Assembly: GCA_041478145.1 (NCBI GenBank)
Contig: JBGOVO010000002.1
Location: 1-42,229, forward strand
DNA length: 42,229 nt
Direction of reading: 5' to 3'
Origin: Candidatus Methylomirabilia bacterium
GTDB lineage: Bacteria; Methylomirabilota; Methylomirabilia; Rokubacteriales; CSP1-6
Shown here: one piece after another, positions 2,566 through 37,218 of the stretch
How positions within the stretch are numbered: the first letter of the stretch is position 1
Layout: every line of letters starts with the position of its first letter
Notes under the pieces: generated by a model
Told to the model about the DNA's origin: nothing
The model's input: the letters and a program-made list of their open reading frames with translations, nothing else
Database searches by the model: none
Translations under genes and position numbers: made by a program

Positions 2566-4321
2566 GGACGTCCTGGTCGAGACCCGACGCGGGCGTGTGC
2601 GCGGCCTGGCCGAGGGGGGCCTCGCGGTCTTCCGCGGGATCCCCTACGCGCGGCCACCGATCGGCCCGCGGCGCTTCGGCCCCCCGGAGCCCGCCGAGTC
2701 GTGGACCGGCACCCACGACGCGACCCGGTTCGGGCCGTCGGCCTCGCAGAACGGCGCGCTCATCGGCCCGATCATGAGCCTCGGCATCGGCCGCACCAGC
2801 GAGGACTGTCTCTACCTCAACGTGTGGACGCCCGCGGCCGACCGGCGGCGCCGCCCGGTCCTGGTGTGGATCCACGGCGGCGCGTTCGTGCTCGGGGCGG
2901 GCTCCCAGATGCTCTACGACGGCGCGGCCCTGGCCCGGCGCGGAGACGTCGTGGTGGTGACGATCAACTACCGGCTGGGCGCCTTCGGCTTCCTGCGGCT
3001 GCGCGATCGGTTCGGGCAGCGGCTGCCCGCCACCGGCAACGAGGGTCTGCTCGACCAGCTTGCCGCGCTCGCGTGGGTGCGCGACGAGATCGAGGCCTTC
3101 GGCGGCGATCCGGAGCAGGTCACGATCTTCGGCGAGTCGGCCGGCTCCATGAGCTGCGCCACCCTCCTCGGGCTCCCGCGAGCCCACCGTCTCTTCCACC
3201 GCGCGATCCTGCAGTCCGGCGGGGCCAACTTCGTGTGGCCCCGCGAGATCGCGAGCCACCTCTCGGAGCACGTCCTTGCCGAGCTCGGAGTCGACTCGCC
3301 GGAGGCGCTCCAGGCCCTCACCACCGACCGCATCCTGGCCGTCCAGCGCCGGTTCTTCGGCGATCTCCTCCTGGGCGAGGATCACGTGCTGGGCGGTCTC
3401 TCCCCCGCCGGTCAGCGCGTCGCGGGCGCGATGTTCCTGGGCCTGTCGCTGGCGCAGCGCCGGTTCGGCCGCATCGCCTCCCCGCTCGCGCGGGGCCTCG
3501 TCGACGTGCTCAAGCAGCGCGCGCGGCGGCAGGCGGCCGGGCCATCGGGCGCGATGGCGTCGCTGCGGGCGTTGCGCACCCAGGGCCTGCCCTTCCAGCC
3601 GGTGGTGGATGGCGAGGTGATCCCGGGTGATCCGCTCGCGACCATCGGGGCCGGCGGGGCCCGTCACGTTCCCCTGCTGATCGGCACCAATCTCGACGAG
3701 TCGAAGCTCTTCGCCCCGCTCGATCCGGAGGCCGCGAGCCTCGATGAGGCGGGCCTGGTCGCGCGCTGCGAGGAGGCGATCGGGGCCGGGCGCGTGGACG
3801 CCGCGGGCCGCGGGAAGCAGGCGGTCGAGGTCTACCGCGCGGCGCGGGCGGCGCGCGGCGAGCGGGTCGAGCCCGGAGAGCTCTGGTTCGCCATCGAGAC
3901 GGACCGGACCATGCGCCATCCCGCGATGAGCCTGGCCGCGCGGCAGGCCGCGCACCAGCCACAGACCTACGCCTACCTCTTCACCTGGCCCTCACCGGTG
4001 CTGGGCGGCATGCTCGGCTCGTGTCACGCGCTCGACCTGCCCTTCGTCTTCGGCACTCTCGAGCACCGGCTGCTTCGCCCGATCGTCGGCCGGGGCCCCG
4101 AGGCGGTGGCCCTGGCCGAGCGCATCCAGGACGCCTGGATCGCGTTTGCGCGCACCGGCCGGCCGGCGCATCACGGCATCGGGGACTGGCCAGCCTACGA
4201 CGGCGCGCACCGCCGCACCATGATCCTCGACCGGCGCTGCCGGGTGGAGGCGGCCCCGCGGGAGCCGGAGCGCGCCTTCTGGGAGACGGTGGACCGCGCG
4301 GCGGGACGTCAGCCGGGCTAG
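2564..4321 (+). CDS. Carboxylesterase type B (para-nitrobenzyl esterase-like)
   Basis: I take the internal ATG at 2564 of ORF 2288..4321 (MDVLVETRRGRVRG...). Family motifs present are FRGIPYARPP, EDCLYLNVWTP, WIHGGAF, and the nucleophile elbow FGESAGS. Confidence 0.9.
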   Translation: MDVLVETRRGRVRGLAEGGLAVFRGIPYARPPIGPRRFGPPEPAESWTGTHDATRFGPSASQNGALIGPIMSLGIGRTSEDCLYLNVWTPAADRRRRPVLVWIHGGAFVLGAGSQMLYDGAALARRGDVVVVTINYRLGAFGFLRLRDRFGQRLPATGNEGLLDQLAALAWVRDEIEAFGGDPEQVTIFGESAGSMSCATLLGLPRAHRLFHRAILQSGGANFVWPREIASHLSEHVLAELGVDSPEALQALTTDRILAVQRRFFGDLLLGEDHVLGGLSPAGQRVAGAMFLGLSLAQRRFGRIASPLARGLVDVLKQRARRQAAGPSGAMASLRALRTQGLPFQPVVDGEVIPGDPLATIGAGGARHVPLLIGTNLDESKLFAPLDPEAASLDEAGLVARCEEAIGAGRVDAAGRGKQAVEVYRAARAARGERVEPGELWFAIETDRTMRHPAMSLAARQAAHQPQTYAYLFTWPSPVLGGMLGSCHALDLPFVFGTLEHRLLRPIVGRGPEAVALAERIQDAWIAFARTGRPAHHGIGDWPAYDGAHRRTMILDRRCRVEAAPREPERAFWETVDRAAGRQPG

Positions 4322-17337: not shown

Positions 17338-19826
<2,489 letters not shown>

Positions 19827-19830
<4 letters not shown>

Positions 19831-22307
19831 GCGTGCCTCCGCCACCGGTCGAGCTCGTCCTTGACGACGCCGTCGCGGCAATCCGGACAGATGCTGTGGC
19901 TGAACTGGGCGTGCGAGTGCTCGGCGACGTAGCTCTCGATCTGCTCCCAGTAGTTCTCGTCGTTCCGCACCTTCCTGCAGTACGAGCAGATCGGGAGCAG
20001 GCCCCGCAGGGCTTTCACCTCCCCGAGCGCCTGCTCGGCGGCCCGGCGGGCGGCGCCCTGCGCCTCGAACAGCGAGGCGTTGCGGATGGCGACCGCCGCC
20101 TGGTCCACGAAGGCGTCCAGCAGCCGCTCGTCCTCGCCGTCGAGGCGGAACGGCTCCCGGCCATTCAGCGCGAGGATCCCGAGCAGGACGCCGTCCAGCA
20201 TGACCGGCAGTCCGAGGAAGCTCTTGAGCCCATGGCTGCGCCACCAGTCGAGCGCCACGAAGCGGCCGGCGCTGTATACGTCCGGCACGTTGACGTTACG
20301 CCCGTAGCGGGCCACCCAGCCGAGCACGCCCACGTCGAAGGGCAGGCTCGGCACCGGCCAGTCCGCCTCCAGCGTCCGGTCGGAGAACCCCACCAGCCGC
20401 AGCGTCCGCGAGTCCTGGCTGGCGACCCAGAAGCAGGCCGCGGTCGTTCCCGCGAGCTGGGCCGCCGCCATCGTGATCTCGTGGAGCACGTGGTCGAGGT
20501 CGAGGCTGCTCGAGACCAGCCGGTTGAGCCGGGTCACGGTGTGCAGCCGCTGGATCCTGGCCTGGCCCGCCGCGTAGAGGCGGGCGTGGATGATGGCGAT
20601 GGCGGCCTGGTCCACGAAACTCTGCAGGAGCGTGTCGTGCTCGGGGCTGCCGACGAACGGCGCGTTGGAGGCGATGGCCAGGACACCGATCGCGGTGTCG
20701 CCGTGCAGGATGGGCACCGCCACCCCGCTCCGCAGGCCGTGGTCCCGGAACCAGCCCGCCGCGCGCGTCCGCGGATCGGCGTCCAGGTCCGGCACGTGAA
20801 TGGTCCGCCGGGTGCGGATCGCCGCGCCCACGACGCCCTCGTCGAAGCGCATGACCCGCACCGGGTAGTCGTCCCAGAGCGCGGGATGCGAGAGGGCGCG
20901 GGCCGATAGCGTCTCGCGGGCCTCGTCGGCGGTGAACACCATCACGAGGTCCGCGTTCATCAGGCGGGCCGCCGCGCGGGCGATCTCGTCGAGGATCCGA
21001 TCGAGGTCCAGCGAGTTCGTGATCAGCCGGTTCAGCGCGGCCAGCGTGTCCGTCCGGTGGAGACGCTCTTGCAGATCGTCGCGCAGACGCATGTGCTCCA
21101 GGGTGAGGGCCACCCGGTCCGCGAAGGATGCCAGGTACGAGATCTCCTCCGGACTGTAGCGACGCGGCGCCTCGGTATTGAGGGTCAGAACGCCGAGGAG
21201 CCGGCCTCCGGCCTTGATCGGCAGACCCAGGTAGCTGACGATGCCGGCCGCCCGATCGCGCTCGGCCAGGAAGTTCCGGGGATCGTTCTGGCAATCCGCG
21301 GAGAACAGGACCTCACCCGTGGTCGCCACCGTTCCCGAGTAGCTACCGTTGAGCGGAAGCTCGACACCCACCGGCACCACGCCATCGGCCACCGCGGCAA
21401 CCCGGAGCACCTGGCGCGCCTCGTCCAAGAGCAGGACCTTGACGTAGGTGGTGCCCGCGAACCGGGAGGCCTCGGTCACGATCTGACCCAGCATGGAGGG
21501 CAAGTCCATCTCGGTCATGACCGCCCGCTCGGCCCTCAGCAGGGCGGCCATCGCTTCCTGGCGGGCCTCGATGGCGCGCGTCTGGGCCGATACCGCGCTC
21601 TCGAGGTCAGCGGATAGCCGGGTGAAGCGCGCGACCAGGAGGTAGTGCAGCCCGACCGCGACGGCGACGAAGGCGTAGTCGAACAACCGGACGCTCTCGA
21701 TGACGTGGGCGGCGTGGAGCACATCGTTGACCGCGCACGCGACATAGACCGCGAAGCTGACCAGGACCGCGCGGCGCACCCCCGGCGCGAGCGAGCGGCT
21801 CTGCCACACCGTGAAGACGCAGTACGCGAACACCGCGAACAGGCAGGGCACGAGCGCGGTCATGAGAGGCCCCGGTTCGTGCGTCCAGTACCGGCCCCCC
21901 AGTCGATCGGTCCTGAGGTACACCGCGCCCGTAATGATGATGTTGTCGCCGAGCCACACGAGGGCGAGGAGGGCCAGGTCCGCGCCCGCGACACCGGCCA
22001 GCAGCGCCCGCGGAAGAGGCTTGCCGGCGAGGGCGTGGCTCAGGCCGATCATCACCACGATCAGGAGCAGCGAGCTCATCCAGGCCAGCCGGCCGCCCAG
22101 TCCGGCCCACTCGGGGCGATCCACCATCGTTTGCAGATAGTGACTCGCCAGGACCAGCAGGGTGTTGGCGCACCAGGCGACCACCCAGGGATGGAGCGGC
22201 TCACGCCGCCGCCCGAGCCAGAGGAAGAGCTGCTGCACGCCCACGGACGCGACGACTCCCATCAGGAGCAGCAGCGGCGTGGCCGAGCTCGGGGTGAAGG
22301 AGGCCAT
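19827..22307 (-). CDS. Membrane sensor: N-terminal multi-TM (about 7 TM) region, three GAF domains, C-terminal four-Cys module; no recognised output domain
   Basis: 826 aa. Hydrophobic segments span roughly the first 230 aa. There are three GAF-like repeats, each ending in ...G(V/I)L(T/A)(L/I)...(e.g. LGVLTLN, IGVLAIAS, LGILALNG). The C-terminus is LLPICSYCRKVRNDENYWEQIESYVAEHSHAQFSHSICPDC. Confidence 0.85.
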
Positions 22308-22334: not shown

Positions 22335-22706
22335 CTAGCGCCGGAACTCCCGTGCCGAGATGCCGTAGCGCTTCATCTTCCCGTGCAGCGTGGTGTAGTT
22401 GGTGCGCAGCAGCCGCGCCGCCTGGCTCTTGTTGCCCTGCGTGGCGATGAGCGCGCGGCGGATGGCCTCGCCTTCAGCGTGGGCCACCGCGCCGTCCACG
22501 ATCTGACGCAGCGAGAAGGCTCCGACGGTCATGCGCGCGGGAGCTGCGACCGGAGCGGCGGGACCGTGGCGATCGGCCGCGGAGGCGACCGGCCGGAGCG
22601 CCGGGAACGCGTGGCCACGGACTGGGAGCAGCGCCTCGGCGGACGGCGCCAGCCGCTCCGGATTCCGACTCGTGATCCGGGGTGAGACGGCTTCGAGAGT
22701 GCTCAT
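22335..22706 (-). CDS. Stand-alone Fis-type HTH_8 DNA-binding protein (truncated paralog of the adjacent NtrC-like activator)
   Basis: 123 aa. The C-terminus GNKSQAARLLRTNYTTLHGKMKRYGISAREF is nearly identical to the activator C-terminus GNKSQAARLLRTDYTTLHAKMKRYGISARDF. It has its own GGAGGG RBS and a sigma-54 promoter upstream. Confidence 0.75.
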   Translation of the reverse strand: MSTLEAVSPRITSRNPERLAPSAEALLPVRGHAFPALRPVASAADRHGPAAPVAAPARMTVGAFSLRQIVDGAVAHAEGEAIRRALIATQGNKSQAARLLRTNYTTLHGKMKRYGISAREFRR

Positions 22707-22758: not shown

Positions 22759-22773
22759 GCAAGGCTGGTGCCA
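22759..22773 (-). promoter_or_regulatory. Sigma-54 (-24/-12) promoter TGGCAC-CAGCC-TTGC
   Basis: The plus strand reads GCAAGGCTGGTGCCA, so the minus strand reads TGGCACCAGCCTTGC. This is a perfect consensus with correct spacing. It lies about 50 nt upstream of the ATG at 22706. Confidence 0.7.
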
Positions 22774-22951: not shown

Positions 22952-24346
22952 TCAGCGCGGAGCGAAATCCCGGGCGGAGATGCCGTAGCGCTTCATCTTG
23001 GCGTGAAGCGTCGTGTAGTCGGTACGCAGGAGACGGGCCGCCTGGCTCTTGTTGCCCTTGGTGGCCTCCAGCGCGCGGCAGATCACCTCGCGCTCCGCCT
23101 GCACGGTTGCCAGCTCCGCCACTTCGCGAAGCGAGAGGTCCTCCCCGCCCGGCTCGGCGGCGGCGGCGCGCGACGGGACGGAGAGCGACGCGTTCAGGGC
23201 CGGGAGGTGCTCCGCGGTCACCACGTCCGACGCCAGGAGGGCCGCCTTGCGGATCACGTTCTTCAGCTCGCGGACGTTGCCGGGCCAGTCGTGACGGAGC
23301 AGCGCGCCCATGGCGTCGTCGGCGATCCGCCGCACCGAGCGGCGCAGCTCCATGCTCACTTCGTCGAGGAAGCGCTGCGCGAGATGGGTGATGTCCTCGC
23401 GCCGGCTCCGGAGCGGCGGCAGCGTGATCGAGAACTCGCTGAGCCGGTAGTAGAGATCGGCGCGGAAGCGGCCGGCCTTCACCCCTTCCTCGAGCTCCGC
23501 GTTGGTGGCGGCGATGATGCGCGCGTCCACCGCCACCGCGCGGGCGGCGCCGAGCGGGTGCACCTCCCGCTGCTCGAGCACTCGCAACAGCTTGGCCTGC
23601 GTGGCCAGCGGCACGTTGCCGATCTCGTCCAGGAATAGCGTGCCACCTCGGGCGAGCTGGAAGTGTCCTTCGCGGCGGCTCTGCGCGCCCGTGAAGGCCC
23701 CGCGCTCGTGCCCGAACAGCTCGGACTCCACGAGGGTCTCGGGGATGGCGCCGCAATCCACCGCCACGAACGGAGCCTTCTGTCTCGGGCTCTGTTGGTG
23801 AATGGCGCGCGCCACCAGCTCCTTGCCCGTTCCCGTCTCCCCCTGGACCAGGACGGTGAAGTTGGACTCGGCCACCTGGGCCACCTGCTGGATCACCTGG
23901 CCGATCGCGGCGCTTCCCCCCATGCGCTCGGCCAGCGAGCTGCCCTGCCCCTGCCGCTTCAGCTCCTCGATGCGGGACCGGAGCTGATTTCGCTCCACCG
24001 CCCGCTGCAGGGTGAGGACCAGCAGCTCCACGTCGAAGGGCTTGGTCAGGAAATCGTAGGCGCCGAGCTTCATGGCCCGCACCGCGGTGGCGAGGTCGGC
24101 GTGGGCGGTGCAGATGATCACCGGGACGTCTCCGTCCAGCCGCTTGATCTCGGGCAGCGCGTCCATGCCGCTCATGCGCGGCATGCTGAGGTCGAGGAGG
24201 ATCACCGCGGGCCGCTCGCGTTGCACCTGCTGCAGGGCGGCGGCTCCGTCTTCGGCCGCCACGACCTCGAATCCCTTGCTCTGGAGGACGGCACCGAGGA
24301 GGGACCGGATCTCGGCCTCGTCGTCGACCACCAGGATCTTCGTCAC
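22952..24346 (-). CDS. Sigma-54-dependent response regulator (NtrC family: REC - AAA+ - HTH_8)
   Basis: REC domain (ILVVDDE...ILLDLSMP), Walker A GETGTGKE, an intact GAFTGA loop, and a C-terminal HTH_8. GTG start. Confidence 0.95.
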   Translation of the reverse strand: MTKILVVDDEAEIRSLLGAVLQSKGFEVVAAEDGAAALQQVQRERPAVILLDLSMPRMSGMDALPEIKRLDGDVPVIICTAHADLATAVRAMKLGAYDFLTKPFDVELLVLTLQRAVERNQLRSRIEELKRQGQGSSLAERMGGSAAIGQVIQQVAQVAESNFTVLVQGETGTGKELVARAIHQQSPRQKAPFVAVDCGAIPETLVESELFGHERGAFTGAQSRREGHFQLARGGTLFLDEIGNVPLATQAKLLRVLEQREVHPLGAARAVAVDARIIAATNAELEEGVKAGRFRADLYYRLSEFSITLPPLRSRREDITHLAQRFLDEVSMELRRSVRRIADDAMGALLRHDWPGNVRELKNVIRKAALLASDVVTAEHLPALNASLSVPSRAAAAEPGGEDLSLREVAELATVQAEREVICRALEATKGNKSQAARLLRTDYTTLHAKMKRYGISARDFAPR

Positions 24347-24350
24347 CAGG

Positions 24351-25193
24351 TCATCCCGTCGCCCGCAGCTGGTAGATGGCGATGTGACGGATCGCCGCGA
24401 TCGGACGCGCGCCCCCCGCCACCAGCAGCAGATCCAGCTCCACGAACTCGTGCCCCTTGCCCTGGAAGAGGTTCTTCACCTTGACGCGGGTTTCCAGCCG
24501 CTCGCCCACCCGGGGCACACTCAGATGCTGGCCGTGGCTCTCCACGTGGATCCACGGACTGACCCGCACGTTGCGGTCGAGCGATCGGTTCGCCTGGTCG
24601 AGGTAGAGCCCGGGATGCGCCGGCGCGTCGGCGTCGCGATACATCGTCAGCGTGTCGCCGACCTTGACCAGGAAGGCGTCCACCACCGACCGTTCCAGGG
24701 CGAGCTCGGGGGTGCCGAGCACCGTGCGGCTCGCGAGGAAGGCGCGGCTCGCGAGGGGGCGGTCCGCGGGCAGCGGAGCCGCCGGGTAGGCCGCCACGTC
24801 GGGCAGCGGCAACAGGGGACCGAGCGGGAGCCCCATCGTCGCGGTCGCGCAGACGTCGTCCTCGTCGTTCACCGCGCGGGCCTGGATGGTGACCTCGTCC
24901 TTCGAATGCGCCGCGACGCTCGCGCGCACCGTGACCGGCTGGCCGAAGTAGACGGGCTTGGCGAAGCGCACCGAGAAGGTGCCGTGGTCCAGCCACGCCC
25001 ATCCGAGCGCCGCCACCACCGGCCGCGTCATCCACGAATAGACGGTCACCCCGGGAACCAACCCGCCCCGGAACCCGAACTCCCGGGCCAGTCCGTCTTC
25101 GTGGATCTTGTTCTCCCAGGCATCCTGCGTCGCGGTGGCGCTGACCCGATACTCGGGGAGCGCGGTTCCCACCACCAGGGCCTCGAGGCTCAT
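24351..25193 (-). CDS. Double hotdog-fold protein (MaoC-dehydratase-like halves)
   Basis: I take the internal ATG at 25193, which overlaps the upstream stop (ATGA). The 280-aa protein has two halves, each with a hotdog-like pattern (VYFGQPVTVRASV...; VGERLETRVKVKNLFQGKGHEFVELDLLL). The assignment comes from the pattern only. Confidence 0.55.
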   Translation of the reverse strand: MSLEALVVGTALPEYRVSATATQDAWENKIHEDGLAREFGFRGGLVPGVTVYSWMTRPVVAALGWAWLDHGTFSVRFAKPVYFGQPVTVRASVAAHSKDEVTIQARAVNDEDDVCATATMGLPLGPLLPLPDVAAYPAAPLPADRPLASRAFLASRTVLGTPELALERSVVDAFLVKVGDTLTMYRDADAPAHPGLYLDQANRSLDRNVRVSPWIHVESHGQHLSVPRVGERLETRVKVKNLFQGKGHEFVELDLLLVAGGARPIAAIRHIAIYQLRATG

Positions 25194-25873
25194 GGCTCGA
25201 TCTTCTTGCCGCCGTAGCCTCCGGCGACGTCCTGGTCCGCGTTCCATCTGACCCAGGTCGCCTCGAGCGCGTCGACGGTCAGCTTGCCGGGTGGTCCGGG
25301 CATCCCGGCCGCGGGCACGAGCACCTCCTGCGGACCCGTCAAGGCTCGCTCCCACTGCCGATCCGGCCCGGCGCACACCGCGGCCCCGTGATGGACCTGC
25401 ACGAGGAGGGAGCCGTCCGGGTTTCGCCTCAGACCGACCCCGCTGCCGCGGACGGTGACGACGGCGGGACCCGCGCGCACCTCGACGTGAGTCGTCGCGG
25501 GGCTGCCGGGCATCACCGCGATCCAGAGCCAGCCGTTATCCAGTCTGACGCGGGTCGGCCCGGGCGCGGCGCCGCTCTCGGCCGCGAGCAGCGCGAGTTG
25601 AGAGCGCGAGCCCAGCCGTAAGACCTGACCGCTGGCGGTCCGGAGCGTGACTCGCCCCCCGACCTGAGTCCGCACGCTGTCGCCTTCACTCAGCTCGGCT
25701 CGGAGCGCCGCGGATGCCCAGGCCGGCGTGTCCTTCTTGTGCAGCTCGGCGGTCCCGCCGAGCGTGACGATCTTGGCTGGCAGCTCATTCGGCTGAGCCC
25801 ACCCCGGAGGGCTGGAAAGGCCGGCGAGGAAGGCGGCCCCAGCCAGCACGGCCGCTCGCGCGATCTTGGGCAC
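25190..25873 (-). CDS. Secreted FecR-domain protein
   Basis: GTG start at 25873, 7 nt after GGAGG. The signal peptide is VPKIARAAVLAGAAFLAGLSSPPGWA/QP. The FecR-like beta pattern is LSEGDSVRTQVGGRVTLRTASGQVLRLGSRSQLAL. Confidence 0.65.
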   Translation of the reverse strand: MPKIARAAVLAGAAFLAGLSSPPGWAQPNELPAKIVTLGGTAELHKKDTPAWASAALRAELSEGDSVRTQVGGRVTLRTASGQVLRLGSRSQLALLAAESGAAPGPTRVRLDNGWLWIAVMPGSPATTHVEVRAGPAVVTVRGSGVGLRRNPDGSLLVQVHHGAAVCAGPDRQWERALTGPQEVLVPAAGMPGPPGKLTVDALEATWVRWNADQDVAGGYGGKKIEP

Positions 25874-35315: not shown

Positions 35316-35419
35316 ACGAAAATCGTCGGCCCCTTCGACAATTTGTAAGCCTCGCGTCGCCGCCGGTTCCCGCGGCATCCGGAGGCCCGCCATATCAGCC
35401 GTTTAGCCCCTCCACCCCG

Positions 35420-35434
35420 TGGCACCGCTCTTGC
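35420..35434 (+). promoter_or_regulatory. Sigma-54 (-24/-12) promoter TGGCAC-CGCTC-TTGC
   Basis: Perfect consensus read directly from the sequence. The GGAG RBS is at 35452-35455 and the ATG at 35464, about 30 nt downstream of the -12 element. Confidence 0.7.
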
Positions 35435-35463
35435 TCGATTTCTCACCGCCTGGAGCCCTCCGA

Positions 35464-37218
35464 ATGAGCACGGGACCCATCAATCGCGAGGTGGCCTTCG
35501 CCGGCCAGCAGGTCCGGCGCAAGGTGATCTTCGCCCTCGCCCTGTGCTCGGTCATCCCACTCTTGCTCTTGACCTACGCATTCCACGGGCCGATGCGCGA
35601 GTTCCTGGGCCCGCTCGCGGGCATCGCCGACGCGATCAGCATTCCCGCCCTGATGGTATTCGCCGCGCTCCTGATGGCAGGCGGGGCCTTCATCGTGTGG
35701 GACATCGCCACCGCCCTGTCACGCGCCGCGCAGCTCAGCAACCAGCGCAATCCGGAGTTGCCGGCGGACCCCGGACGCAAAGACGAGATCGGCACGCTCA
35801 TGAGCTCGTTCGCGCGCATGCTCGCCACCATCGAGCAGCAGGCGGAGGAGATCAACGAGTTCCCGCGCCGCCTGGACCAGCTCATCCGCGAAGCCTTCCG
35901 GGATTCGCTGACCGGCCTGCCCAACCGGGCGCTCTTCATGGACCGGCTCGCCCACGCCCTCACCCGCGCCGAACGCAGCGGAGGGAACCTGGCGGTGCTG
36001 TTCCTCGATCTGGACCGGTTCAAGATCCTGAACGAGACCCTCGGCCACGAGGTCGGCGACCGCCTGCTGCTGGAGGTCGGACATCGGATCGCGGCGTGCC
36101 TGCGCCCCGAGGACACCGTCGCCCGTCTCGGCGGCGACGAGTTCGGGCTGCTCCTCGAGGAGGCCGCCGATCTCAGCGCCGCCACCGCGCTGGCCGAGCG
36201 GGTCTCCGCCGAAATCCAGCGCCCCTTCGTCGTCGAGGGGCGCGACGTCCTGATCTCCGCGAGCATCGGGGTGGCGCTCACCGGTGGCGGCTCGATGCAG
36301 CCGGACGAGGTGCTGCACAACGCGGACCTCGCGATGTACCAGGCCAAGGCCGAGGGGCGCGCGCGCTACGAGCTGTACCAGCCCGACCTCAGCGTGTCCA
36401 CCCGCGAGCGGCTCGATCTGCAGTCCGACCTCCGGACCGCGGGTGCCCGGCAGGAGCTGAGCCTCCGGTACCAGCCCGTAGTGACCCTGAGCTCGATCCA
36501 CGCGGTCGAGGTCGAGGCCCTCATCCGCTGGGATCACCGTCGTCGGGGCGCCCTGCTCCCGGCCGACTTCATCGCGCTATCGGAGGAGACGGGGCTGATC
36601 GTGCCGATGGGCCAGTGGGTGCTGCGCGAGGCCTGCCGCCAGGCGCGCGCCTGGCAGACCGACGGCCGCGGCGCCGCGCCCCTCATCGTCGGCGTCAACC
36701 TGTCGGCGAGCCAGTTCGAGCGGGACGCGCTGCCCGCCGAGATCGCGGTCATCCTGCGCGAGACCGGGCTCGAGGCGGCACACCTACAGCTCGAGGTCAG
36801 CGAGGCGGTGCTCATGCGAGACGACCCGAGGATGCTGGACCGGCTCGAGGCCCTCAAGAAGATCGGCGTGCGTCTGGCCATCGACGACTTCGGCACCGGC
36901 TACGCCTCCCTCTCGTACCTCAAGCGCCTGCCCGTGGACTGCCTCAAGATCGACCGCTCCCTCATCAAGGGCTTGGGGCATGAGACCGAGGACACCGCCA
37001 TCATCCGCGCCGTGGTCACCCTCGCGCAGAGCCTCGGCATCATGGTGACCGCGGAAGGGGTGGAGACCGCCGAGCAGCTCTTCCAGCTCCGCGCGGTCGG
37101 CTGCGACCGGGGCCAGGGCTACTACTTCGCCCGGCCCGTTTCCGCCGACCGCGTGCCCGATCTGCTCGCGAGCCTCGACGCCGACGAGCGGCACCGGAGC
37201 CCCTCATGTCTTGGCTGA
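35464..37218 (+). CDS. Membrane-anchored GGDEF-EAL protein (diguanylate cyclase / phosphodiesterase)
   Basis: Two TM segments plus a HAMP-like linker. The active site RLGGDEF is intact, with an RxxD I-site (RPED) 5 residues upstream. EAL-domain motifs are EVEALIRW, DDFGTGYASLSYL and EGVET. Confidence 0.9.
   Translation: MSTGPINREVAFAGQQVRRKVIFALALCSVIPLLLLTYAFHGPMREFLGPLAGIADAISIPALMVFAALLMAGGAFIVWDIATALSRAAQLSNQRNPELPADPGRKDEIGTLMSSFARMLATIEQQAEEINEFPRRLDQLIREAFRDSLTGLPNRALFMDRLAHALTRAERSGGNLAVLFLDLDRFKILNETLGHEVGDRLLLEVGHRIAACLRPEDTVARLGGDEFGLLLEEAADLSAATALAERVSAEIQRPFVVEGRDVLISASIGVALTGGGSMQPDEVLHNADLAMYQAKAEGRARYELYQPDLSVSTRERLDLQSDLRTAGARQELSLRYQPVVTLSSIHAVEVEALIRWDHRRRGALLPADFIALSEETGLIVPMGQWVLREACRQARAWQTDGRGAAPLIVGVNLSASQFERDALPAEIAVILRETGLEAAHLQLEVSEAVLMRDDPRMLDRLEALKKIGVRLAIDDFGTGYASLSYLKRLPVDCLKIDRSLIKGLGHETEDTAIIRAVVTLAQSLGIMVTAEGVETAEQLFQLRAVGCDRGQGYYFARPVSADRVPDLLASLDADERHRSPSCLG

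Follow-up and report, generated by a model that had tools for sequence, protein, structure and literature searches.

What does a membrane-bound sensor signal through when it ends without any recognisable output domain? The question is raised by a gene on a 42,229-nucleotide (nt) stretch of DNA from a Candidatus Methylomirabilia bacterium (assembly GCA_041478145.1, contig JBGOVO010000002.1, positions 1 to 42,229; hereafter the window), which encodes a sensor of 826 amino acids (aa) with a multi-helix membrane region, three GAF domains, and a short C-terminal tail bearing four cysteines in two CxxC pairs. The original prediction for this gene, made from the letters of the DNA, held that the tail is the protein's only output, that it recurs on other sensors, and that the membrane sensor may control a soluble hybrid kinase whose start overlaps its own stop. 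Here we report that the tail very probably belongs to a huge, hitherto undescribed family of Cys4 output modules, sitting where HisKA, GGDEF, or helix-turn-helix (HTH) domains follow REC, PAS, GAF, HAMP, and other inputs, and we weigh what it may act on at this locus. What is new in this otherwise modular signalling protein is the type of its output, which has not been characterised so far.

The Cys4 Tail and Its Family

The sensor C-terminus reads LLPICSYCRKVRNDENYWEQIESYVAEHSHAQFSHSICPDC, exactly as first quoted, and its parts lie as follows.

19995..20078, minus strand: helical coiled-coil, signalling-helix-like linker from the last GAF domain to the tail, residues ~744-771 (AlphaFold2, motif)
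19878..19994, minus strand: Cys4 tail core, P772-C810, 39 aa, P-I-C-x2-C-x29-C-P-x-C (sequence, family alignment, AlphaFold2)
19830..19877, minus strand: C-terminal helix after the second CxxC, residues 811-826, 16 aa (AlphaFold2 helix 61-78, pLDDT >90)

The four cysteines are C774, C777, C807, and C810, encoded on the minus strand at 19986-19988, 19977-19979, 19887-19889, and 19878-19880, with 29 residues separating the two CxxC pairs. A six-frame scan of the window found the sensor tail to be the sole copy of this motif. When a profile of the tail (A1) was searched against 1.84 billion representatives (clusters at 50% identity), it matched 24,268 clusters at E ≤ 1e-3 and 19,933 at E ≤ 1e-10, a number of matches that places the tail far beyond chance. 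One narrow tail peptide pattern alone has more than 600 matches in species-representative genomes, spread over Acidobacteriota, Rokubacteria, Sericytochromatia, Verrucomicrobiota, Planctomycetota, Cloacimonadota, Nitrospirota, Chloroflexota, Gemmatimonadota, KSB1, Myxococcota, Desulfobacterota, and others.

The carriers of the tail are signalling proteins of many kinds. The first search already returned matches after REC, PAS_3, and GAF fragments, and in a Pfam census of 74 diverse representatives the domains preceding the tail included PAS (37) and REC (15), as well as MASE6, GAF, HAMP, PocR, CHASE, CHASE3, Cache, Reg_prop/Y_Y_Y, and SBP_bac_3. The earlier claim that the tail recurs C-terminally on PAS, GAF, and REC proteins in several phyla is borne out by these searches. 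None of the 74 proteins scanned with Pfam contained HisKA, HATPase, GGDEF, EAL, HD, or HTH, and no kinase domain was found in ~150 further tail genes of the loci that we retrieved (~230 tail proteins overall). The commonest carrier is a response regulator of ~205 aa composed of REC, coiled-coil, and tail, ~60% identical across phyla; such proteins are annotated just as "response regulator" or under wrong COG names, and other carriers as "GAF domain-containing protein" or "hypothetical protein."

Conservation within the tail extends well beyond the cysteines. The core is 39 aa long in 220 of 221 family members, the positions P, C, C, F, H, C, and C are invariant, and R, D, W, E, Y, S, and P are near-invariant; after the last cysteine the family median is 18 aa. 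The sensor carries the family positions R781, D783, W787, E791, Y793, H797, S798, F802, S803, and H804, among them the tryptophan and the FSH triplet that had looked conserved at first sight. Given its fixed 39-aa core, its shared non-cysteine positions, and its C-terminal site after a helical linker in a protein without catalytic or HTH output, the sensor can be assigned to the tail family by sequence. Comparison of the REC-tail (n = 173), PAS-tail (n = 78), and 7TM-GAF-tail (n = 26) classes, the last with a seven-transmembrane (7TM) region, showed ~20 positions conserved alike in all three, and the polar set K-K-x-R-x-D, Q, E, H-S, and S/T-H is 85-100% conserved across them. Such polar residues conserved alike in every class imply a surface for a ligand or partner shared by all of them. 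Overall, the core is acidic: its mean net charge is -1.5, and the median isoelectric point (pI) is 5.8 when the terminal helix is included.

Structure prediction of the tail alone, proposed earlier as a check, was carried out with AlphaFold2 on single-chain queries of 79 and 60 aa and gave a pLDDT of 87 and 84, respectively. In these models the linker forms a helix (residues 2-21 of the 79-aa query), the first CxxC lies in a beta-knuckle, the second where the terminal helix begins, and the core is mainly beta. The order of these elements suggests a treble-clef-like arrangement, which Foldseek did not confirm, and the motif together with the predicted topology is consistent with one metal ion held by the four cysteines.

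Several carriers show other layouts. About 35 representatives in addition to P0053 (P and L numbers are our handles for proteins and loci) contain two complete input-coil-tail units, such as REC-tail-REC-tail in 439 aa, and fusions to an extra domain were seen once each as REC-tail-PilZ (P0138) and PAS-tail-REC (P0177). In Malonomonas rubra DSM 5091, a genuine stand-alone protein of 84 aa consists of coiled-coil and tail (WP_072906094.1, L087 6001-6255); its gene lies divergently, 181 nt from a dksA-family gene, with housekeeping genes around. Three Planctomycetota loci (L088-L090, e.g., L089 1801-2435) have a REC protein of 148 aa and a tail protein of 59-63 aa called as overlapping genes. 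We rejected this split as evidence for a tail acting in trans, because the +1 frame runs through the canonical linker, indicating a REC-tail gene with a one-base frameshift; the frameshift recurs across several independent assemblies, where it may reflect a real pseudogene, recoding, or an error common to them all. A "tail-Hpt" protein (P0156) was likewise set aside, as it looks like a frameshift fusion.

Linker Lengths and the Output Position

A strong indication of what kind of domain the tail is comes from the spacing that precedes it. A stretch of 33 aa separates the PAS DIT motif from the tail proline in 94 of 95 proteins. Between the KP of REC beta5 and the tail proline, 92 of 100 proteins have 46 aa, and the REC-tail exceptions of 32, 39, 53, and 67 aa differ from this by steps of seven. 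The linker motif itself is kept in the family as L..AL.EVK.LRGLLP, or in more general form L..AL.EVK.L+GLLP. Heptad-constrained linkers are typical of effectors driven through a continuous coiled-coil, as in PAS-kinase and PAS-cyclase proteins. Linkers quantised in the manner of effector domains are therefore strong evidence that the tail is a regulated output and not another sensor. The tail is, moreover, the only candidate output of its carriers, since the proteins examined lack a kinase and the 74 scanned with Pfam lack cyclase, phosphodiesterase, and HTH domains.

Comparison with Known Modules

No family name, model, or structure for the tail was found in Pfam, NCBIfam, or PDB, with InterPro, CDD, and AlphaFold DB lying outside the scope of the search, and a very recent or obscure description could still exist. 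Against Pfam and NCBIfam at E ≤ 1 the tail drew sub-threshold Cys-pattern noise only (CEP104_ZnF, zf-C4pol, RING), and against PDB sequences, searched with the single sequence and with the profile, nothing significant. A full-text search of the literature, motif sequence strings included, returned no description of the tail and HalOD2 as the only related item. With the Foldseek comparison given below, these results agree with the original prediction that no function is assigned to the tail. One weak, local resemblance was judged to be probably due to chance: animal GDH1, a glutamate dehydrogenase, was matched at E 0.01-0.4 through IRRDDGSWEVIEGYRAQHS. Tail residues 781-798, IRxDxxYWEQIExYxxxHS, resemble this segment, which is without the cysteines.

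HalOD2 is a REC-linked C-terminal output of haloarchaea, with no known function and reported only from a few halobacteria, in which helices are followed by two CXXC motifs 20-25 residues apart that are predicted to form a zinc finger (PMC5847659). DNA or RNA binding has been proposed for it (Galperin et al., 2018; PMC5847659). The tail likewise follows REC as a C-terminal output with helices and two CXXC motifs; compared by description only, it differs in its fixed spacer of 29 residues, where HalOD2 has 20-25 after a HalX-like domain, and in belonging to a very large bacterial family whose members occur after PAS, GAF, and HAMP as well. No HalX match was found by Pfam in the sensor.

Among three zinc modules compared with the tail by hhalign, the zinc-binding domain (ZBD) of ClpX scored best, at a probability of 14% (pairwise E 0.002, 33 aligned columns, two gaps), with LYCSFCGK...ICDEC aligned to LPICSYCKK...ICPxC and no Pfam zf-C4_ClpX match. 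Small and of the Cys4 type like the tail, the ClpX ZBD forms dimers and acts through contacts with partner proteins; it is N-terminal in an AAA+ unfoldase, whereas the tail is C-terminal on sensors. Rubredoxin reached a probability of 0.5% and a DksA sequence 0.1%, with neither a rubredoxin nor a zf-dskA_traR match in Pfam at E ≤ 1. None of the three values allows the tail to be placed in the family concerned. An anti-sigma zinc switch of the ZAS type (zf-HC2) is not indicated either: PF13490 gave no match, and the tail has the spacing H804-x2-C807-x2-C810, not H-x3-C-x2-C, while an NCBIfam "antisigmaE" match at E 0.087 falls on the linker helix and not on the Cys core. Hpt had no Pfam match in the sensor, and the predicted tail core, mainly beta, is not a four-helix bundle. 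GATA fingers follow CX2CX17-18CX2C, are basic, and bind DNA. The fungal White Collar proteins, with a PAS input and a C-terminal C4 finger as the only output, offer a parallel in architecture; the tail differs from GATA in being acidic, in its 29-residue spacer, and in having no Pfam GATA match.

The Sensor

19827..22307, minus strand: sensor gene, 826 aa plus stop (open reading frame (ORF) call, Pfam GAF, orthologues)
21618..22307, minus strand: membrane region, residues 1-230, with 6-7 predicted transmembrane (TM) helices (hydropathy)
20025..21554, minus strand: three GAF domains, ~residues 252-415, 434-572, and 598-761 (Pfam GAF, GAF_2, and GAF_3; NCBIfam)

The sensor ORF runs from ATG to TGA, with a third-position GC of 0.93 in a window of 70.5% GC. 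A database protein 100% identical to it (P0201) lies on a metagenome-assembled contig of GCA_041498685.1, and ~25 orthologues of 72-84% identity are present in public assemblies, those with a taxon label (e.g., P0203) being named Rokubacteria or Methylomirabilota. The identical protein and the orthologues establish that the sensor is a real gene.

Hydropathy analysis gave six strong hydrophobic segments and one weaker segment (~39-59) in residues 1-230, which by the positive-inside rule we read as an N-out, C-in 7TM topology. Pfam gave zero matches in residues 1-240 even at E ≤ 10; PF07695 (7TMR-DISM_7TM) appears in a 45% identity homologue (P0236), as a "weak" precomputed match. Over the sensor, Pfam reported PF01590 (E 2.7e-56), PF13185 (E 6e-50), and PF13492 (E 1.5e-29), each in three stretches, with no further family passing the threshold, and the NCBIfam matches were partial, confined to the GAF region, and bound the first and third GAF domains. 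By these significant profile matches the protein is classed as a GAF-domain signalling protein. No HisKA, HATPase, GGDEF, EAL, HD-GYP, HTH, or REC was found by Pfam or NCBIfam anywhere in its 826 aa, and the architecture described from the outset, a multi-TM N-terminus and three GAF domains without kinase, cyclase, phosphodiesterase, HTH, or REC, is thus upheld.

The Locus and Its Putative Promoter

Around the sensor, the minus-strand order of genes is a FecR-domain gene, a gene of ~280 aa, an NtrC-type activator, a gap of 245 nt, an HTH_8 gene, the sensor, and the hybrid kinase.

22952..24346, minus strand: NtrC-type sigma-54 activator, REC-AAA+-HTH_8 (Pfam Sigma54_activat E 5e-71, Response_reg, HTH_8)
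22759..22773, minus strand: putative sigma-54 type -24/-12 promoter sequence TGGCACcagccTTGC, an exact TGGCAC-N5-TTGC within the 245-nt gap
22335..22706, minus strand: 123-aa protein, Pro/Ala-rich at its N-terminus and ending in a Fis-type HTH_8 (Pfam HTH_8 E 8.2e-10)
19827..19830, minus strand: GTGA overlap of the sensor stop (TGA, 19827-19829) and the kinase start (GTG, 19828-19830)
17338..19830, minus strand: soluble hybrid kinase, 830 aa, PAS-GAF-PAS-HisKA-HATPase-REC (Pfam, hydropathy)

The stop of the sensor does overlap the start of the kinase, as had been noticed, and this same-strand stop/start overlap, which is kept in L001, L085, and L086, qualifies the pair as translationally coupled. 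Both the H-box, IAHDFNN (H465), and the receiver aspartate, D758 in LLLTDVIMP, are intact in the kinase; no hydrophobic segment was found in it (maximum KD19 1.32), in keeping with its description as soluble. First in the putative operon stands the HTH_8 gene, 27 nt upstream of the sensor, which also precedes the sensor in the orthologues and in homologues of 53% (L084) and 45% (L171) identity. The HTH_8 protein resembles an isolated NtrC DNA-binding domain, and it could compete with the bacterial enhancer-binding protein (bEBP) at its sites or partner the sensor.

The sequence TGGCACcagccTTGC lies 53 nt upstream of the HTH_8 gene, and an exact sigma-54 consensus is found at the equivalent place in L085, L001, and L084. 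This consensus and the adjacent NtrC-type activator define a putative promoter and suggest that the operon of HTH_8 gene, sensor, and kinase is sigma-54-dependent and possibly autoregulated. The NtrC-type activator, syntenic in L001, L085, L086, and L171, is the likely activator of this promoter and the likely end-point of the phosphorelay.

The ~280-aa gene (frame of 24351..25376, minus strand) is syntenic in the orthologues and has no confident Pfam family, a faint MaoC appearing in the precomputed call. An ORF at 24343-25035 (minus strand) was rejected as coding, being out of frame with an Arg/Gly/Pro-rich translation. Elsewhere in the window, a second exact sigma-54 consensus, TGGCACCGCTCTTGC, lies at 35420-35434 (plus strand), at the 5′ end of the ORF 35419-37218 (plus strand).

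Homologues and Neighbours

Among close relatives the pairing of sensor and kinase recurs: the order of FecR-domain gene, intervening gene, NtrC, HTH_8, sensor, and hybrid kinase, with the 4-nt overlap, is found in every orthologue with enough flanking sequence (L001, L085, L086). In L171, a two-GAF homologue, NtrC and HTH_8 are kept upstream, and a gene starting with a REC 48% identical to that of the kinase begins 77 nt after the sensor homologue; in L172 (42% identity) a PAS-HisKA-HATPase-REC hybrid kinase lies upstream. A further protein, P0246, shares the membrane region of the sensor along with GAF domains one and two (44% identity over sensor residues 16-572) and carries them fused to HisKA-HATPase-REC-REC, and the fusion indicates that the sensor module can drive a hybrid-kinase transmitter in cis. 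In P0246 the hybrid kinase is covalently attached, whereas in the sensor a third GAF and the Cys4 tail take its place and the kinase is separate, with an overlapping start.

Two observations on these relatives stand apart. The closest relative of the locus in the genome collection, L001 (DASQAL010000031.1), is labelled Candidatus Acidoferrum (Acidobacteriota), at variance with the Rokubacteria and Methylomirabilota names of the other labelled close homologues, which may be a binning or taxonomy inconsistency. In L171 two small paralogous lipoprotein-like ORFs (2008-2433 and 2928-3374), with Cys-containing signal-peptide-like starts, flank HTH_8; this pair is absent from the window.

For the family at large we surveyed the neighbours of 72 REC-tail and 72 PAS-tail genes, taking more distant positions as background. 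A kinase or REC gene adjoins REC-tail genes in 35% of cases upstream and 27% downstream; for PAS-tail genes the share with an adjoining two-component system (TCS) gene is 19% upstream and 13% downstream, against a background of 3-11%. Two-component genes were the only ones enriched. An apparent excess of hybrid kinases beside tail genes was rejected as a specific signal, because kinases not adjoining a tail gene are, in these loci, mostly hybrid as well.

What the Tail May Act On

Taken together, these data make it highly probable that the protein is a membrane GAF sensor whose transmitter belongs to the Cys4 tail family. For its mode of action we favour, tentatively and with slightly less than even confidence, a metal-stabilised, coiled-coil-driven protein-interaction module, here acting most likely on the adjacent kinase or its REC. 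The sensor is a predicted inner-membrane protein with three cytoplasmic GAF domains and a non-enzymatic transmitter that would be mounted on a rigid, heptad-registered coiled-coil. The four cysteines would hold a structural metal, probably zinc. A signal would rotate or shift the dimeric linker helix, as the quantised linkers suggest, and so alter the presentation of two small acidic modules, which would then bind another protein and not nucleic acid, a protein target being preferred because of the acidic pI. At this locus the likeliest target would be the soluble hybrid kinase that is translationally coupled to the sensor, or the receiver domain of that kinase, through which the membrane sensor could modulate phosphoryl flow to the NtrC-type activator and from there to the sigma-54 promoter of the HTH_8-sensor-kinase operon, closing an autoregulatory loop. 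Taken by itself, this choice of local partner, the adjacent kinase or its REC domain, is less likely than not.

Precedents for such an arrangement exist. Kinase-less accessory sensors steer a signalling partner by contact in the NifL-NifA and UhpC-UhpB pairs. There, as here, a non-catalytic sensor is encoded beside a regulator or kinase, and a sigma-54 bEBP is involved here too; they differ in that contact is made through PAS/GHKL or transporter-like domains without a Cys4 tail, while the contact proposed here is hypothetical.

Several findings weigh against the favoured arrangement. The operon contains no visible Hpt protein for the link between kinase and NtrC. Foldseek searches of both AlphaFold2 tail models against PDB gave no match at E ≤ 0.001, leaving the fold unassigned. 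Two homologues of 40-43% identity that retain the tail (P0240, P0230) have a convergent small gene downstream and no kinase. A two-component neighbour is absent for 81% (upstream) and 87% (downstream) of PAS-tail genes, so that the general partner of the tail cannot be a neighbour-encoded kinase, and around the 72 REC-tail and 72 PAS-tail genes no recurrent neighbour family outside the two-component systems was found. Finally, an identical polar surface argues for one common ligand or partner across phyla, unlike a locus-specific kinase, unless the shared target is itself a universally conserved feature such as the active-site face of REC. The coupling of sensor and kinase first proposed is supported only in part: the overlap and gene order in L001, L085, and L086, the P0246 fusion, the REC-starting gene of L171, and the hybrid kinase of L172 speak for it, while the distant homologues without a downstream kinase and the low frequency of TCS neighbours of PAS-tail genes do not. 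Control of the kinase by the sensor is thus plausible as a hypothesis for this locus; it does not extend to the tail family as a whole.

The alternative that survives best, though we consider it unlikely, takes the tail to be a generic output with a single conserved target, a cellular component or ligand that would not differ between phyla or architectures; candidates would include a core machine and a small molecule that binds to a second His/Asp/Glu site. The overlapping hybrid kinase would then be the cognate kinase of the NtrC-type regulator, co-regulated with the sensor and not controlled by it. This is what the identical conservation of K778/779, R781, D783, E791, H797, S798, S803, and H804 in REC-, PAS-, and GAF-tail classes would lead one to expect, and the ~60% identity of the REC-tail regulators across phyla, the scarcity of TCS neighbours around sensor-tail genes, the kinase-free distant homologues, and the stand-alone protein of M. 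rubra among housekeeping genes all fit it. On the other side, no conserved neighbour or fusion names the target, the few fusions of the tail are all to signalling domains (PilZ, REC), and the conserved 4-nt kinase overlap and the cis-fused P0246 would have to be coincidence.

Improbable, in our judgement, is a tail directed at receiver domains in general, docking on their phosphorylation face and regulating phosphotransfer or dephosphorylation, or else forming a new phosphotransfer element around the invariant Ser-His. It would account at once for the identical polar surface and for the lack of a conserved non-TCS partner gene nearby. PAS-, GAF-, and 7TM-tail proteins would in that case be a large, unrecognised group of "third-component" sensors plugged into hybrid-kinase phosphorelays, and REC-tail proteins would be self-contained relay nodes.

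It is also improbable, and marginally more so, that the tail adds a further input, sensing O2, oxidants, or metal through a Zn-thiolate redox switch or an Fe(Cys)4 centre like that of rubredoxin, in proteins that signal by other means. The CxxC...CPxC pattern does resemble rubredoxin knuckles, and many matches come from sediments and anaerobic lineages. ZAS anti-sigma factors, moreover, contain Hx3Cx2C switches, which the conserved histidine beside the second CxxC recalls. Yet the spacing in the tail is Hx2C, neither rubredoxin nor zf-HC2 was matched in Pfam at E ≤ 1, the family is abundant in aerobic soil phyla too, and REC-tail and PAS-tail proteins would be left without any output by a module that always stands C-terminal, after a length-quantised coiled-coil, in the position of an effector. 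Position, linker quantisation, and charge make both redox or metal sensing and nucleic-acid binding less likely than a protein-directed output. Nucleic-acid binding, in which carriers would be one-component or response-regulator transcription factors after the manner of the White Collar proteins and the suggestion for HalOD2, is very improbable: C4 treble-clef-like fingers often bind nucleic acid, a conserved K-K-x-R follows the first CxxC, and the NCBI pipeline gives some members the generic name "response regulator transcription factor," but the core is acidic and has no basic tail or patch, no DNA-binding finger, GATA or other, was matched in Pfam, and a membrane-anchored 7TM protein would be an awkward transcription factor.

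Implications

Modular sensors that end without a recognisable output are a standing gap in censuses of bacterial signal transduction. The present locus offers a compact test bed, in which a putative sigma-54 promoter, an HTH_8 gene, the sensor, an overlapping kinase, and an NtrC-type activator lie together and a kinase-fused relative is available for comparison. Once the family has a name and its partner is found, thousands of sensors and regulators that are now orphans would gain an assigned output; they occur in environmentally dominant phyla such as Acidobacteriota, Planctomycetota, Verrucomicrobiota, Desulfobacterota, and Rokubacteria.

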